Assembly (NCBI GenBank): GCA_002719675.1
Contig: PBID01000016.1
Coordinates: 76,021-140,020 of the forward strand
Length of the DNA stretch: 64,000 bases
Direction of reading: 5' to 3'
Source: Chloroflexota bacterium
Lineage (GTDB): Bacteria > Chloroflexota > Dehalococcoidia > Lucifugimonadales > GCA-2719675
Shown here: one piece after another, positions 1 to 64,000 of the stretch
How positions within the stretch are numbered: the first letter of the stretch is position 1
How the letters are laid out: each line of letters begins with the position of its first letter
The notes under the pieces: generated by a model
What the model was told of the DNA's origin: nothing
Databases searched by the model: none
Seen by the model: only the letters and a program-made list of their open reading frames with translations
Program-made: the position numbers and the translations under genes

Positions 1-438
1 AAATTTTTCTTTCTTGAGGCTCATTTGAGTTTTGATTTTGTCAATTGTAATAGAATCTTCCTTTAATTTTTTGTTGAATTCATCTTGCAACAACATAATT
101 TTAAGAAGTTTGTTTTCTTCTACAGTTTTTTCTTGGTTTAAAAACCCCAGAGAATTTTCTATAGCTTCAAGTTCTTTAGGATTTGAGACTGAACCATCAT
201 ATAGTTGCTTCTCAATCGAAGAAGATTTTTGGTTGATGTCAGATAATTTATTTTCTGATTTACGTCTAAATTTTTCTATTTCAGAAAGTTTTGAAGTGGA
301 GTGATTGATTTTATTTTGAGCAATGTTTAATTTATTCTTATTAGTTAATTCTTCATTAATTTTTTGGATATTATTATTTAACTTGTCTAACTTAGAGTCA
401 ATTTTTTGCAAGTCAACCATCGACTTAATAGAATCCAT
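1..438 (-). CDS. Coiled-coil protein, probably C4-type zinc-ribbon family (COG1579-like); 3' end runs off the window
   Basis: Not in the ORF track. Hand translation from ATG 438: MDSIKSMVDLQKIDSKLDKL...EKQLYDGSVSNPKELEAI..., open to position 1. The LQxID start and LYxGxxxNPKEL resemble this family. Confidence 0.7.
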   Translation of the reverse strand, partial: MDSIKSMVDLQKIDSKLDKLNNNIQKINEELTNKNKLNIAQNKINHSTSKLSEIEKFRRKSENKLSDINQKSSSIEKQLYDGSVSNPKELEAIENSLGFLNQEKTVEENKLLKIMLLQDEFNKKLKEDSITIDKIKTQMSLKKEKF

Positions 439-2030: not shown

Positions 2031-4223
2031 TTGTTGAAAATTAAAGACTCTATGACAGGTGATTTAAAATCGGTAATCTCTGATAATCAAACTCAGGTAA
2101 AAATTTATACTTGCGGCCCTACTGTGTATCGAAGTGCACATTTAGGTAATATGCGTACTTATTTAATGGCAGATTGGATTCGTCGTGTAATTTCTTTAGA
2201 CTCTAATATAAAAATATTTCATGTTAAAAACATTACAGATGTTGGTCATATGCGTCAAGAGAGATTAGAACTGGGGGAAGATAGAATTATTTCTGCTGCT
2301 ATTAATGAAAATAAAACTGCTAGTGAGATTGCAGATTTTTATACTTCTGAGTTTTTTAGAGATGAAAAAAAACTTAATATAATTCCTGCAGAATTTTTTC
2401 CTAAAGCTACTGAAAATATTAACGAGATGATTGAAATAATCGAAAAGTTATTGGTAGATGGATTCGCGTATAAAGTACTTGGAAATATTTATTACAATGT
2501 AGATAAATGGAAAGACTATGGAATTTTGTCTGGTAATAATGGTAGTGATTTACTTGAAGCTGTCAGAATTAAAAAAGATTTGAATAAATTAGATCCTAGG
2601 GATTTTACGTTATGGAAGAAAGCAGAGAAGGGTAGGACTTTAAAATGGAAAAGTCCATGGGGCGAAGGATTTCCTGGGTGGCATATAGAATGTTCAGCAA
2701 TGTCGATTAAATACTTAGGTAAATCTATAGATATTCACACAGGTGGTGTTGATAATTTATTTCCCCATCACGAGGATGAAATTGCTCAATCAGATGCATT
2801 CAATGGAGTTAAAACAGTAAAAACTTGGGTTCATGGACAGCATCTTTTGTGGGATGGTGTAAAAATGTCAAAATCTGAGATGAATGATCTAACAGTTTCT
2901 GATTTAGAAAATAAAGGGTTTGATCCAATTGCATTTAGATACTTATGTTTGACTTCTAGGTATTATAATCGGCTACATTTTTCTATTTCTTCTATTAAGT
3001 CAGCACAAAATGCTTTGAAAAAAATCCGACAAAAGGTTTGGATTTGGTCAGAAAATTTGGTTAATAAAAGTTCTGCAGATCAAATTTTGATCAAAAATTA
3101 CAAATTAAAATTTCATCAGTTTGTTTCAGATAATCTGAACTTACCTCTTGCAGTATCTCATATGTGGGCAGTAGTCCATTCTGATTTGTCAGATTCTAAT
3201 AAATTTGAATTGTTATTATATTTTGATAAAGTTTTTGGTTTAGGTTTAGATTCAATATCAAAAAATAAAATTGATCAAGAGATTAATTCAAAAATGTCTT
3301 TGCGATCTGATCTTCGTTTAAATCAGAATTATTCAAGCACAGACAAAATCCGCTCGGATATTGCTGGAAAAGGTTATTTAATAGAAGATACTTCAAAAAA
3401 ATCTAGAATAAGACCTTTGATGAATTGGGAGAGTCCTGAAAAAAAGTTTTTGGATTGTTTAAAGTCTCCGAAAGATTTTGCTTTTTTACCTTTGAATGAA
3501 TCGGAATTTGAAATTACAGTAGGATTGATTGCTAGGAATGATCTAGCTGATATTACACGTTTCGTCTCTGGATTTTTAAATACGCTTAAGTTCAAAAATT
3601 CTGAATTGTTGATTGTAAATAACTCAACAAATGTTTATGTACACTCCTATCTAGCAAATTTAAATAAAGATTATCAAAATGTCCGAGTAATTCATTTGGA
3701 TCATAATTATGGAGAAGCTACAGCAAAAAACATAATTTTGAAACAAAGTAGAGGCGAGATTCTTATATTGATGGATGTTAGTACAGAAGTTATTGGAGAT
3801 ATTTTTACTCCAATTAAAAATATATTGTCAGATGAAAAAATTGGTGTTTGTGGGATAGATGGATTAACTTCAGATGATTTTAGGCATTTTCATGAAGATA
3901 ATAACAAGGGTCTTTTTGTTGATGCTATGCAGGCATACTGTTTTGCTTTCAGAAGAAACATTTTGTTGGATGTGGGCTTAATGCGTGAAAATTTTAGATT
4001 CTATAGGAATTTGGATTTGGATTTTAGTTTACAGATAAAGAACTTGGGATATAAAATATTTTCTTTTGATATGCTTCCTTTGAACAAACATGAGCATTGG
4101 GTTTTTCAAGAATATTCTTCTGAAAGGGTCGATGAATTGAGCAAGAAGAACTACAAACGCTTCTTGAAAAAGTGGGATGGAAGAAATGACTTACTCGTAA
4201 AAAACCAAAAAAATCAGATTTGA
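2031..4223 (+). CDS. cysS: Cysteine--tRNA ligase fused to a C-terminal GT2-like glycosyltransferase domain
   Basis: TCGPTVY..HLGN, NITDVGH, DFTLWK, SPWGEGFPGWHIECSAMS, DIHTGG..FPHHEDE, KMSKS. From about aa 490, a GT-A-like pattern (LIVNNST, NYGEATAKN, GEILILMD, RNLDLDFSL). Confidence 0.9.
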   Translation: MLKIKDSMTGDLKSVISDNQTQVKIYTCGPTVYRSAHLGNMRTYLMADWIRRVISLDSNIKIFHVKNITDVGHMRQERLELGEDRIISAAINENKTASEIADFYTSEFFRDEKKLNIIPAEFFPKATENINEMIEIIEKLLVDGFAYKVLGNIYYNVDKWKDYGILSGNNGSDLLEAVRIKKDLNKLDPRDFTLWKKAEKGRTLKWKSPWGEGFPGWHIECSAMSIKYLGKSIDIHTGGVDNLFPHHEDEIAQSDAFNGVKTVKTWVHGQHLLWDGVKMSKSEMNDLTVSDLENKGFDPIAFRYLCLTSRYYNRLHFSISSIKSAQNALKKIRQKVWIWSENLVNKSSADQILIKNYKLKFHQFVSDNLNLPLAVSHMWAVVHSDLSDSNKFELLLYFDKVFGLGLDSISKNKIDQEINSKMSLRSDLRLNQNYSSTDKIRSDIAGKGYLIEDTSKKSRIRPLMNWESPEKKFLDCLKSPKDFAFLPLNESEFEITVGLIARNDLADITRFVSGFLNTLKFKNSELLIVNNSTNVYVHSYLANLNKDYQNVRVIHLDHNYGEATAKNIILKQSRGEILILMDVSTEVIGDIFTPIKNILSDEKIGVCGIDGLTSDDFRHFHEDNNKGLFVDAMQAYCFAFRRNILLDVGLMRENFRFYRNLDLDFSLQIKNLGYKIFSFDMLPLNKHEHWVFQEYSSERVDELSKKNYKRFLKKWDGRNDLLVKNQKNQI

Positions 4224-5261: not shown

Positions 5262-6260
5262 TTATTTATCTCTAGTTAAAACATAATCTACGAGATCAAT
5301 GAGAGCTATTTTGTGTGAATTTTCAGGAAGAAACTTAATTTCATTTAATGCTGTTTTGCAAAACTGCTCTGCTATTTTTAATGCTTCAGAAATGTTTGAT
5401 TTCTCTGATGCATTTTCAATTGCTTTGGAAAGTAAAATATTATTTGAAGGATCACCTAAAAATTGAATTATTGGATTTTCTATAGGGTTTTTTTCAATCG
5501 AAATAATTGAAGGTAATGTGAGTGTCCCTTTTGAAAGATCAGCTGATGTTGGTTTGCCTGTTTTTTGTGAATCTCCAGTAAAATCAAGTATGTCGTCGAT
5601 TATTTGGAATGCCATTCCCAAATTATATCCAAAATTTTTCAATGCATTGATTGTCCTTTGATCTGTATTACTTAAAATTGCGCCAGATTCTGAAGCTGTT
5701 GTAAATAATGATGCTGTTTTCTTATAAATTCTTTTGAAATATTTTTCTTTAGTTTGATCTGATGAATACGTTGAATACATTTGATCTAATTCACCTACGG
5801 AAAGTTCCATGATTGTTTCAGAGAATCTTTTGATTACGTAAATAGATTTAGTTTCACATATTAAAGATGCAGCTGCAGCAAAAATATAATCTCCAATTAA
5901 AACAGCTGAATTATCACCCCATAAGTTGCTAATAGTTGCTTTCCCTCTTCTGAAATTTGAGTCATCTACCGTGTCGTCATGTACGAGAGTTGCGATATGA
6001 AGTAGTTCAACAGCAGCAGCTAATTTTTCAACAGTTTTCAGATTTTGATTGCCGAAACCCGCTGATAATAGCGATAGAGTTGGTCTTAATTTTTTCCCCG
6101 ATGAATTTAGTGAATACTCAAGTAATTGTGACAAAAATGGTAAGTGTTTTTCATTATTATAGCTTTTAGAGAGGTCTGAAATTTCATCTTTGACATTTTC
6201 AAGACTATTGTTAATAGGTGAATAAATATTTGATAGTAGATTGTTTCTGAGGGTATTCAA
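5262..6260 (-). CDS. Polyprenyl diphosphate synthase (HepT/IspB-like)
   Basis: GKKLRP, ELLHIATLVHDDTVD..RRG, KTASLF, FQIIDDILD. Confidence 0.93.
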   Translation of the reverse strand: MNTLRNNLLSNIYSPINNSLENVKDEISDLSKSYNNEKHLPFLSQLLEYSLNSSGKKLRPTLSLLSAGFGNQNLKTVEKLAAAVELLHIATLVHDDTVDDSNFRRGKATISNLWGDNSAVLIGDYIFAAAASLICETKSIYVIKRFSETIMELSVGELDQMYSTYSSDQTKEKYFKRIYKKTASLFTTASESGAILSNTDQRTINALKNFGYNLGMAFQIIDDILDFTGDSQKTGKPTSADLSKGTLTLPSIISIEKNPIENPIIQFLGDPSNNILLSKAIENASEKSNISEALKIAEQFCKTALNEIKFLPENSHKIALIDLVDYVLTRDK

Positions 6261-7930
6261 TTTTTTCCTATTTTTTTTGTTTCAGTTTCAATAATTGAAT
6301 CATCTAATTTTTTGAATAGAGGGGCACTCTTTTCAAGCTGAATTCCAGGGGAGAGTAAGTTTTTGTCCCATGACCATTTTATAGAACTTTCTTGATTGTC
6401 AGTGAACCCAAGCATTTTATGTAATTGTTGTGATGAAAAAGGTAAGTAAGGATATAAAACTACTTTGAGACAATTAATTACTGATAAGCATGTCCAAATT
6501 GTAGTTTGAGTAGATTCTATATCGTTTTTAATTGTTTTCCAGGGTTCTTTGTGGTCTAAATATTGGTTTGCAGATTTTGCTAAAGCCATAGCTTTTTCCA
6601 GTCCTGATCTGAATTTACATTTTTCAATGTTTTCACTTATTTCAACAAATTTTTGATTGCATGTATTTAGTAATGCTATAGAGTCATTATCTAATGTACC
6701 TGGTTTTGGTATTTTGCCTTCAAAGTTTTTATGAGTTAATGTCATTACCCTGTTAACAAGGTTTCCATAGGTAGCTACTAATTCATCATTATTAGCGCGA
6801 ATGTATTCTTCCCACGAGAAATCAGAATCGCTATTTTCTGGCATATTTGAAGCAATTGCGTATCTAAGAGGATCTGGGTCGTAAAGTGATAAATATTCTG
6901 GAAGCCATACAGCCCAATTTCTACTTGTTGATTGTTTAGAACCTTCAATGTTTAAATATTCGTTAGCAGGAATATCATGAGGTAAATTTAGGTTGTCATA
7001 TCCTATCAAAATAGCTGGCCAGATAATGCTATGAAATGGAATATTGTCTTTCCCCATGAAGTAATAGCTTTTTGCAGAAGATTTCCAAAAATCTTTCCAA
7101 GATATTTCAGATGATTGGTTGTCAGACCACTCGATTGATGCGGAAAGGTAACCAATTACAGCTTCAAACCAGACATATAACTTTTTGTTTTCATAATTTT
7201 TTAATGGAACGGGAATTCCCCATTCTATGTCTCTAGTAATAGGCCTGTCCTTCAATCCGGATTTTATATACGACATAGAGAAATTTTTTACATTTGGCTT
7301 CCAAGTATCTTTGGTTTCTAGCCATGAAAGGAGTGTGTCTTGGAAATTACTTAGTTTTAAAAAGAAATGTTCAGTTTTTTTTAGTTTGGGAGTCGAATCA
7401 CATAGCTTGCATTTCATATCGATTAAATCTTTGGGATCTAAAGTGATCCCACAACTATCACATTGGTCACCTCGGGCATTTTTGTCATTGCATTTAGGGC
7501 ATGTTCCGTTAACATATCTATCTGCTAAAAATCTTTGGTCTTGTTCACAAAATGGTTGAGTCATAAAATCTTTATAAATTAATTTTTTTTCGTATAATTT
7601 TAAGAATATATCTTGTGCAACTTTTTGGTGATTTTTTGTATGAGTTGATGTGAATAAATCGAAAGTAATTCCTAATTCTTCCCAGTTTTTAACAAATTCT
7701 TGATGATATTTTTGGAATACTTCTTTTGGAGAAATACCTAAATCTTCTGCAGTTAATGTTACGGGAGTTCCATGTGAATCACTTCCTGAAACCATTAGGA
7801 CGTCATTACCTTTTGCTCGATGGTATCTTGCAAAAATGTCTGCTGGAATATAAGCACCAGCTGTTTGCCCAATATGCAAAGAACCATTTGCATATGGCCA
7901 AGCTACACATATGAGGATTTTTTCATTCAT
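6257..7930 (-). CDS. metG: Methionine--tRNA ligase (no C-terminal appended domain)
   Basis: PYANGSLHIG, GSDSHGT, zinc-knuckle CxxC pairs, YVWFEA, GKDNIPFH, KQSTS. Confidence 0.97.
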   Translation of the reverse strand: MNEKILICVAWPYANGSLHIGQTAGAYIPADIFARYHRAKGNDVLMVSGSDSHGTPVTLTAEDLGISPKEVFQKYHQEFVKNWEELGITFDLFTSTHTKNHQKVAQDIFLKLYEKKLIYKDFMTQPFCEQDQRFLADRYVNGTCPKCNDKNARGDQCDSCGITLDPKDLIDMKCKLCDSTPKLKKTEHFFLKLSNFQDTLLSWLETKDTWKPNVKNFSMSYIKSGLKDRPITRDIEWGIPVPLKNYENKKLYVWFEAVIGYLSASIEWSDNQSSEISWKDFWKSSAKSYYFMGKDNIPFHSIIWPAILIGYDNLNLPHDIPANEYLNIEGSKQSTSRNWAVWLPEYLSLYDPDPLRYAIASNMPENSDSDFSWEEYIRANNDELVATYGNLVNRVMTLTHKNFEGKIPKPGTLDNDSIALLNTCNQKFVEISENIEKCKFRSGLEKAMALAKSANQYLDHKEPWKTIKNDIESTQTTIWTCLSVINCLKVVLYPYLPFSSQQLHKMLGFTDNQESSIKWSWDKNLLSPGIQLEKSAPLFKKLDDSIIETETKKIGKN

Positions 7931-63933: not shown

Positions 63934-64000
63934 GGCGACGTGGCCAAGTGGTTTAAGGCGGAGGTCTGCAAAACCTCTATTCATGGGTTCGAATCCCATC
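63934..64000 (+). tRNA. tRNA-Cys(GCA), 3' end truncated by the window edge
   Basis: GGCGACG acceptor 5' strand, D arm GCCAAGTGGTTTAAGGC, anticodon arm GAGGT-CTGCAAA-ACCTC, T arm ATGGG-TTCGAAT-CCCAT. Confidence 0.95.

Follow-up and report, generated by a model that had tools for sequence, protein, structure and literature searches.

A cysteinyl-tRNA synthetase joined to a GT2-type glycosyltransferase domain in Chloroflexota, with tRNA-Cys as a possible target

Why should an enzyme that charges tRNA with cysteine carry a glycosyltransferase at its C-terminal end? The question is raised by a gene lying near the start of a 64,000-nucleotide (nt) stretch of DNA, here called the window, which covers positions 76,021 to 140,020 of contig PBID01000016.1 in assembly GCA_002719675.1 of a Chloroflexota bacterium (Dehalococcoidia); the assembly, referred to below as G000, comprises 1.40 Mb in 19 contigs and is 89.8% complete. 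An initial annotation, made by a model from the sequence without database searches, had described the gene as a single uninterrupted open reading frame (ORF) of 730 amino acids (aa), encoding a complete cysteinyl-tRNA synthetase (CysRS) fused to a GT2-like glycosyltransferase (GT). It is rare for bacterial aminoacyl-tRNA synthetases to acquire catalytic domains. The fused gene is an accessory paralogue found beside a housekeeping CysRS, and the anticodon-binding CysS_C domain followed by GT2 is, from the sequences compared, a recurrent unit, fused or free, of which no earlier description was found.

The reading of the frame was confirmed: it opens with a TTG codon and contains no internal stop, its first residues are common to homologues (e.g., MLKIQDSMTGN in P0002), the G+C content is about 30% along the whole gene with no break in composition at the CysRS/GT junction, and the full-length AF2 model has a predicted local distance difference test score (pLDDT) of 88.2 and a predicted template modelling score (pTM) of 0.82. 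The fusion is not an artefact of assembly, an eventuality that the initial annotation had itself raised: the two parts lie in one unbroken frame in 77 of 79 related loci, closed chromosomes included, the exceptions being one short form and one frameshifted copy. In another set, both parts were detected by tblastn in 80 of 80 loci, a figure that concerns their presence and says nothing on the frame. The protein matches listed include 120 clusters of 711-764 aa, and both Pfam domains are present in every one of them, at identities from 98% to about 49%; the few names attached to them are "cysteine--tRNA ligase", from SAR202 or Chloroflexi metagenome-assembled genomes (MAGs), an annotation that hides the GT half of the protein. 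An ORF of 1325 aa in locus L151, considered as a longer architecture, proved to be an over-extended high-GC frame with no extra domain.

The fusion is widespread, on the point of recurrence that the initial annotation had wished to see surveyed; nearly all of its occurrences are in one phylum, and the recurrence is thus not one across phyla. In a species-representative genome collection, at least 589 of 598 pattern-matched genome stretches encode a relative, and the 80 best loci of this first scan are all labelled Dehalococcoidia, SAR202 or Chloroflexota. A second scan, seeded with the short forms described below, gave relatives in 379 of 590 stretches; 77 of its 80 best loci have Chloroflexota-lineage labels, including Anaerolineae, Thermoflexales and Herpetosiphonaceae, and the remaining three are labelled Nitrospinota, Desulfarculaceae and "Bacterium HR24". 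When the GT domain alone was used as seed, one related locus was obtained, and the protein Atlas returned generic GT2 clusters only, in one of which 18% of the members have CysS_C. The bearers of the fusion are mostly SAR202/Dehalococcoidia, abundant bacteria of the deep ocean, and the GT has stayed on CysRS for as long as this large clade has existed. A full-text literature search, with subscription-only papers outside its scope, found no description of a CysRS-glycosyltransferase fusion or of a CysS_C-GT2 protein, in agreement with the earlier statement that no enzyme of such architecture has been characterised.

Residues 1-462 form a complete CysRS. The TIGR00435 cysS model matches aa 2-459 with 387.9 bits (cut-off 340) over its positions 1-462 of 466, and Pfam tRNA-synt_1e covers aa 19-326 (E 3e-89); the PRK14536 equivalog cut-off is not reached (387 vs 780), and the score of 202.4 bits on the MshC model TIGR03447, with a cut-off of 485.1, places the protein outside MshC. 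All the CysRS motifs were found where the initial annotation had located them: C28 in TCGP, WHIEC at 217-221 and FPHHEDE at 244-250, together with both class I signatures, KMSKS and HIGH, the latter as HLGN, a HxGN variant that also occurs in the solved Borrelia CysRS. C28, C221, H246 and E250, which we take to be zinc ligands by analogy with the Escherichia coli enzyme, are all present and invariant or near-invariant in the family. In the family alignment of 104 rows, where the CysRS motif columns are filled in 87-89, C28 is retained in 86/87, HxGN in 85/87, WHIEC in 85/87, HHE in 87/88 and KM(A/S)KS in 87/89; the mean pairwise identity of the catalytic domain (0.745) is the highest of all segments. 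The closest solved relative is the Borrelia CysRS 3sp1 (E 1.5e-83), to which aa 2-460 align, reaching its residue 498; weaker matches are E. coli CysRS (1.3e-58) and MshC (3c8z; 4.4e-45, aa 23-372 only). The window protein also contains the insertion GHMRQERLELGEDRIISAA, present in Borrelia-type CysRS; its HxGN motif and its 11-residue insertion after NITDVG (GH...GEDK) both recur in 3sp1 and 6ujd.

The anticodon-binding domain is present as well. The CysRS part ends with LRSDLR..TDKIRSDI..GYLIED, residues R425, R429, D438, R441 and D453 are at least 90% conserved, and the pattern R-x3-R...D-x2-R...D is common to the fused protein and to the canonical CysRS of G000; Pfam CysS_C gives no match at E≤1 for the window protein, while relatives do match. 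Judging from these features, the N-terminal 462 residues are probably a working cysteine-tRNA ligase of Borrelia/Chloroflexota type. With the Borrelia/Bacteroidota-type enzymes (3sp1, 6ujd; TIGR00435, PRK14536-like) the protein shares an alignable region extending over aa 2-460, the HxGN motif, the insertion, KMSKS, the Zn/Cys ligands and the anticodon-binding domain; unlike them, it carries about 270 extra C-terminal residues, corresponding to a linker and the GT2 domain, and exists as a second copy beside a housekeeping CysRS.

The C-terminal part is recognised by Pfam PF00535 (Glycos_transf_2) over aa 497-622 (E 3e-10; 40.7 bits, cut-off 23.3). The AF2 model of aa 416-730 (pLDDT 92.7, pTM 0.86) was compared with GT-A enzymes by Foldseek (E about 5e-12, probability 1.00) and by VIA-align, which gave Z scores of 19.7 for mGalNAc-T1 (232 aligned residues, root-mean-square deviation 3.0), 19.5 for PcManGT, 18.6 for SpsA and 18.4 for K4CP, with aligned lengths of 208-232 residues for the first three. 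Residues 493-730 are confidently predicted to adopt a GT-A/GT2 fold, as the initial annotation had surmised from the motifs LMDVSTE (580-586) and FRFYRNLDLDF (655-665), the latter including Y658-R-N-L-D662-L-D664; D631-A632 lies between the two. With GT2/GT-A enzymes such as SpsA, K4CP, ppGalNAc-T, PcManGT and the Leptospira protein 6p61, the domain shares the fold (Z 17-20), the nucleotide-binding N-terminal half, the position of the DxD motif and an "ED"-type base region. Unlike these enzymes, it is characterised by D-x-S-x-E, a G-x2-G-x2-G...F loop (605-620) and a tail composed of HxH and a helix, and either CysS_C or an entire CysRS stands in front of it.

In a profile search of solved structures, the family sequence LDTSVE was aligned to the DxD segment of K4CP (LDCDM), and FRFYRNLDLDF to its FTHWGGEDNEF, which puts D662 at the usual place of the catalytic base. 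A canonical DxD is absent: the first Asp (D582) is kept and the third position is a Ser (S584), the family consensus in this place being D-T-S-V-E (63/104 rows); the conserved first Asp and E586 may substitute for the full motif. YRNLD(L/I)D is found in 86/104 rows and the Asp of the putative catalytic base in at least 91/104, so that D662 is the candidate indicated by the alignment; HxH (H687-E-H689) occurs in 104/104 rows. Other GT residues are near-invariant too, the whole list being R510, E525, G561, D582, S584, E586, G605, G608, G611, F620, D631, R642, D662, H687, H689 and N707. Pairwise identity averages 0.615 in the core and 0.737 in the HxH-helix tail, the latter as high as in the CysRS catalytic domain; such values are high for a GT2 and would fit a single conserved acceptor. 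From these data, the C-terminal 240 residues or so appear to be an active GT-A glycosyltransferase that depends on a metal and has a nucleotide sugar as donor. Many homologues (among them P0006, P0031, P0056, P0066, P0152, P0160, P0149 and P0180) also have His-rich C-terminal tails, from HDHSHH-type ends up to stretches of about 60 aa in which HxH is repeated many times, which could bind metal; the window copy has none.

The point raised by the initial annotation, whether the genome contains a second, canonical cysS, is answered by contig C5 of G000, where such a gene (472 bits, 480 aa) lies directly downstream of ispF and ispD. The fused and canonical CysRSs of G000 are 35% identical and differ in the first signature (HLGN vs HVGH). 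The phylum was surveyed in 151 genomes including G000, two of them unpublished (G038 and G145, neither with the GT family), and the GT family was scored if full length and at 165 bits or more. It was found in 33 genomes; 17 contain fusions, with a CysRS match immediately upstream on the same strand, 15 have the GT apart from any CysRS, and G142 is unclear. The distinction between fused and free was made on the adjacency of the CysRS and GT matches; open-frame length is unreliable in high-GC genomes. At least two CysRS-family matches (E≤1e-30) are present in 16 of the 17 fusion genomes, the exception being a 57%-complete MAG. None of the 14 genomes sampled from the class of G000 has the GT family at 165 bits or more.

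A quick IQ-TREE maximum-likelihood search on 55 CysRS domains (row G101 left out) separated all 25 fused domains from the others by a single branch, with a Shimodaira-Hasegawa-like approximate likelihood ratio (SH-aLRT) support of 100 and an ordinary stem length of 0.29. The group in which the fused clade lies includes free CysRSs from other Chloroflexota families, apparently with a housekeeping role, and the free CysRS of G000 falls in the other main group, with Dehalococcoides-like genomes. Since there is one fused clade among ordinary CysRSs, on an ordinary stem, the tree indicates a single origin of the fusion from a normal CysRS, with no visible change in its mode of evolution. The idea that the HxGN/insertion type represents an accessory type was rejected, as many Chloroflexota use it as their sole or housekeeping CysRS. 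A third clade of the CysRS family consists of MshC-like proteins of about 400 aa that lack the anticodon-binding domain and score 377 bits on TIGR03447 (cut-off 485); members occur in the fusion-bearing genome G111 (locus L091) and in loci L219, L220 and L221, and may point to a novel Cys-ligase product in Chloroflexota.

The GT domain is not always attached to a synthetase. In an exhaustive HMMER search, aa 467-730 matched 1979 representative proteins at E≤1e-3, of which 45 reach E≤1e-30; when the best 150 proteins were classified with hidden Markov models (HMMs) cut from the family alignment, 83 had a full GT match and 67 were fragments. The commonest architecture among the 83 clusters is CysS_C+GT2 only (30), followed by GT2 only (28), by the helical domain and GT2 with or without CysS_C (13, six of them with all three domains), by complete fusions (11) and by a single cluster with the catalytic and helical domains and GT2. 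The domain is also found as a free protein of about 300-345 aa with only CysS_C in front: 12 free genes of 293-342 aa, some of them in one- and two-contig assemblies, start just before CysS_C. Pfam CysS_C is recognised at E≤0.01 in 11 of 12 short forms of alignment A5, a set partly overlapping these genes, and the short forms keep the GT motifs and the Arg/Asp pattern common to fused and canonical CysRS. In G029 a GT4 gene is followed by a 293-aa CysS_C-GT2 gene, and the latter shares 19 nt with the start of a gene for a complete CysRS of 468 aa; the order of these last two is opposite to that of the fusion and represents an independent linkage. P0165 (593 aa) provides a further combination, in which an unrelated N-terminus of about 290 aa, without a Pfam match at E≤1e-3, is joined to CysS_C+GT2.

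Other members have lost parts of the synthetase. P0122 keeps the whole architecture and the GT, with HIGH and KMSKS replaced by DINQ and KMATR; P0233, P0242, P0243 and others (520-570 aa) are composed of a degenerate N-terminus, the helical domain and the GT, with no CysS_C. As the CysRS catalytic motifs can be lost while the GT is kept, cysteine activation is not required for the function of the GT in every case. A possible split enzyme in G009, where CysS_C seemed to have moved from CysRS to the GT protein, was dropped after a six-frame HMM scan: in this four-contig genome the CysRS stops at model position 368 by an apparent frameshift, and the helical end and CysS_C were found in another frame just downstream.

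Because the GT lies directly behind the anticodon-binding domain and free CysS_C+GT2 proteins exist, CysS_C is proposed as a targeting device. The CysRS part would bind tRNA-Cys via its own anticodon-binding domain; CysS_C, or the whole CysRS body, would bring the GT to this tRNA, and the sugar would then be transferred either to a nucleoside in the anticodon arm or to something that tRNA-Cys carries. Among the explanations considered for the fusion, a glycosyltransferase aimed at tRNA-Cys is the best, and we put it forward tentatively on the basis of domain order and conservation. Its more detailed form is somewhat more doubtful, namely that the CysS_C+GT2 module, fused or free, is a bacterial tRNA-Cys-specific GT making an undescribed anticodon-arm sugar, and that the attached CysRS holds, perhaps preferentially charges, the modified tRNA. 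The glycosylation of a tRNA had been one of three functions suggested by the initial annotation, and it gains indirect support from the free CysS_C+GT2 proteins. The presumed substrate of the fused CysRS part is the tRNA-Cys(GCA) encoded at the end of the window, the only tRNA-Cys gene detected in the G000 assembly, which has the anticodon loop CUGCAAA (A36-A37-A38 context), the discriminator U73 and an encoded CCA. As for the rest of the tRNA set, 30 tRNA genes were detected in this assembly, and a tRNA-Sec(TCA) gene on contig C5 suggests that this small genome probably uses selenocysteine.

Two known systems can be likened to the proposal. Glu-Q-RS (YadB) is a GluRS paralogue that modifies an anticodon nucleoside of tRNA-Asp; it has lost the anticodon-binding domain and uses the synthetase active site for the reaction. 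It has in common with the proposal the recruitment of an aminoacyl-tRNA synthetase paralogue for anticodon-nucleoside modification; unlike YadB, the fusion has a synthetase that appears to be intact, and the reaction would be left to the separate GT domain. The second system includes QTGAL, which is a GT-A enzyme. QTGAL and QTMAN are animal enzymes that glycosylate queuosine at tRNA position 34 and are the only enzymes described as adding a sugar to an anticodon nucleoside of a specific tRNA (PMC12518689; PMC11782371). The analogy drawn here is one of function, and, unlike what is proposed for the fusion, the animal pair has Q34 of tRNA-Tyr and tRNA-Asp as its target. The retention of CysS_C in the free forms, the position of the GT behind it, the unusual conservation of the GT and this animal Q34 precedent would together support tRNA targeting.

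A number of observations weigh against a tRNA-Cys target. tRNA-Cys(GCA) carries no queuosine, and we know of no glycosylated nucleoside in bacterial tRNA. A dedicated second tRNA-Cys was not found by ARAGORN in G000, and G111, G138 (one contig each) and G075 have one full-length BLAST match each among the matches listed for a single 77-nt query of limited reach. With a median net charge of -9 and an isoelectric point of 5.0 (n=104), the GT core is acidic and gives no electrostatic hint of RNA binding; charge, uninformative at best, was dropped as a sign of it. At 528-532 the window copy has VNNST, with N530 in a minority state, where most relatives have VDNGS (Asp in at least 90%); this Asp is presumably nucleotide-binding, a role known from SpsA-type enzymes. 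The 28 clusters with GT2 only and the P0233 group without CysS_C indicate that CysS_C is not obligatory for every member. Moreover, the sugar-metabolism neighbours seen in some lineages, which are PIG-L deacetylases, the GT4 gene in G029 and a mannose-1-phosphate guanylyltransferase gene lying upstream in G138, would fit a small-molecule or glycan pathway equally well. The two enzymatic activities and tRNA binding by the free CysS_C are, like the acceptor, what we infer, and the acceptor is the weakest step.

Several of these points would be accounted for if the acceptor of the GT2 were not RNA at all, a possible reading in which the sugar is transferred to a protein, peptide, lipid or metabolite, the CysRS is a genuine second copy, and the fusion serves co-regulation, localisation or docking to translation. 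The closest folds are protein or polysaccharide GT-A enzymes (ppGalNAc-T, PcManGT and SpsA, with the Z scores given above), and the acidic core, the GT2-only relatives and the adjoining sugar-pathway genes are in line with it. However, a non-RNA acceptor leaves unexplained why precisely the 47 aa of the anticodon-binding domain, conserved Arg and Asp residues included, are retained in the free form, and it does not explain the high conservation of the GT, given that rapid divergence is usual among envelope GT2s. The synteny of the related loci revealed no conserved partner gene and is of housekeeping type, with pyk in 51/80, a Na/Ca exchanger in 47/80 and metG in 33/80.

Less favoured is a thiol or cysteinyl-glycoside pathway resembling those of mycothiol and bacillithiol, where the GT2 would make GlcNAc-X, a PIG-L enzyme would free the amine and the CysRS-like part would ligate cysteine as MshC does. 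MshC is likewise a CysRS paralogue used together with a glycosyltransferase and a PIG-L protein, and a BshB/Mca-like PIG-L deacetylase gene lies directly downstream of the fusion, co-directional and with gaps of 68-208 nt, in 13 of the 149 loci having enough downstream DNA (L108, L120, L131-L133, L136, L140, L144, L146, L147, L149, L165 and L169). An orthologue is present elsewhere in G000, between nuoN and a gene with a B12-binding domain (53-59% identity; locus L173); among the NCBIfam families it comes closest to BshB1, BshB2 and Mca, with 98 bits against the BshB1 cut-off of 182.5. BshC was not found in the 89.8%-complete G000, nor was BshA above its cut-off (best 113 bits vs 273.7), so that the known bacillithiol route is not seen in this assembly, and a GT4 gene precedes the CysS_C-GT2/CysRS pair in G029.

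Against such a pathway, the 13 PIG-L-adjacent cases form one moderately diverse group (GT identity 59-98%), and PIG-L homologues occur in 128 of the 151 phylum genomes, with or without the GT family, the closest relatives of the G000 protein being in families f21 and f11, both of which lack the GT family at 165 bits or more; a specific link between the deacetylase and the GT was accordingly rejected. The fusion does not belong to either known system: its GT is a GT2, while the partner of MshC is a GT4, BshC was not found in the G000 assembly and the PIG-L scores below the BshB1 cut-off. It misses the MshC model by a wide interval (202 vs 485 bits), it retains a full and conserved anticodon-binding domain, before which the 414-aa MshC chains end, and its clade is nested among housekeeping CysRSs and distinct from the Chloroflexota MshC-like clade, which provides a separate paralogue in the phylum, even in the fusion-bearing G111. 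Finally, catalytically degenerate CysRS parts with the GT kept cannot ligate cysteine. A thiol or cysteinyl-glycoside product had been the leading idea of the initial annotation; it is now the least favoured of its three functions, and unlikely.

That the GT is a non-catalytic appendage, a degenerate GT2 fold through which a duplicate CysRS would be stabilised in structure, dimerised or regulated, would agree with D-x-S in place of the canonical DxD and with the missing first nucleotide-binding Asp of the window copy, but is very improbable, as D582, E586, D662, D631 and HxH are kept in nearly all 104 rows and the free forms keep the GT motifs without any CysRS to regulate.

If the GT transfers a sugar onto tRNA-Cys, tRNA glycosylation would be opened as a field in bacteria, and a module specific for tRNA-Cys would be the first bacterial tRNA glycosylation system and the first aminoacyl-tRNA synthetase fused to a tRNA-modifying GT. 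If, instead, the sugar enters a cysteine-containing metabolite, a new route to a low-molecular-weight thiol would exist in Chloroflexota.

Table 1. Location of the fused gene, its domains and the other features mentioned in the text (positions refer to the window unless a locus or contig is named)
Feature	Position	Strand	Basis or remark
Whole gene, accessory CysRS + GT2 fusion, 730 aa	2031..4223	+	ORF, domain profiles, AF2 model
CysRS catalytic domain (Rossmann + connective peptide, CP), aa 1-330	2031..3020	+	profiles, motifs
HLGN, aa 37-40	2139-2150	+	
KMSKS, aa 278-282	2862-2876	+	
CysRS helical (stem-contact / anticodon-side) domain, aa 331-415	3021..3275	+	TIGR00435 and 3sp1 alignments
CysS_C-type anticodon-binding alpha/beta domain, aa 416-462	3276..3416	+	near-invariant columns
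Linker, aa 463-492	3417..3506	+	lower confidence, pLDDT blocks 65-79 in the aa 416-730 model
GT-A / GT2 core, aa 493-686	3507..4088	+	Pfam, structure matches, conservation
D582-V-S584-T-E586, in DxD place	3774-3788	+	
Conserved C-terminal HxH + helix tail, aa 687-730	4089..4220	+	family alignment
Residues of the tail: H687-E-H689, W692, R700, S704, N707, R710, W715, R718			
tRNA-Cys(GCA)	63934..64000, continuing 10 nt past the window end; C16:139954-140030	+	ARAGORN
Coiled-coil / zinc-ribbon protein gene	1..438, continuing past the window start	-	
Polyprenyl synthase + metG	5262..7930	-	
tRNA-Sec(TCA), G000	C5:25167-25264		
PIG-L orthologue, G000	L173, 1471..2190	+	
GT4, CysS_C-GT2 and CysRS genes, G029	L182, 4644..8325	+	
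Frameshifted CysRS, G009	L089, 3727..5329	-	
MshC-like paralogue, G111	L091, 4057..5265	+	

As regards the immediate surroundings of the fused gene, the stop codon of a pyruvate kinase gene (Pfam PK) lies 30 nt upstream of its start, and a gene for a membrane protein of Na/Ca-exchanger type comes next after it. Further downstream, the polyprenyl synthase and metG genes show an arrangement that is kept in 33-34 of 80 related loci and represents the ordinary synteny of the clade. On the other side, the coiled-coil / zinc-ribbon protein gene is divergent from pyk, and members of its family occupy this upstream, opposite-strand position in two sets of related loci (44 of 79 and 34 of 80).

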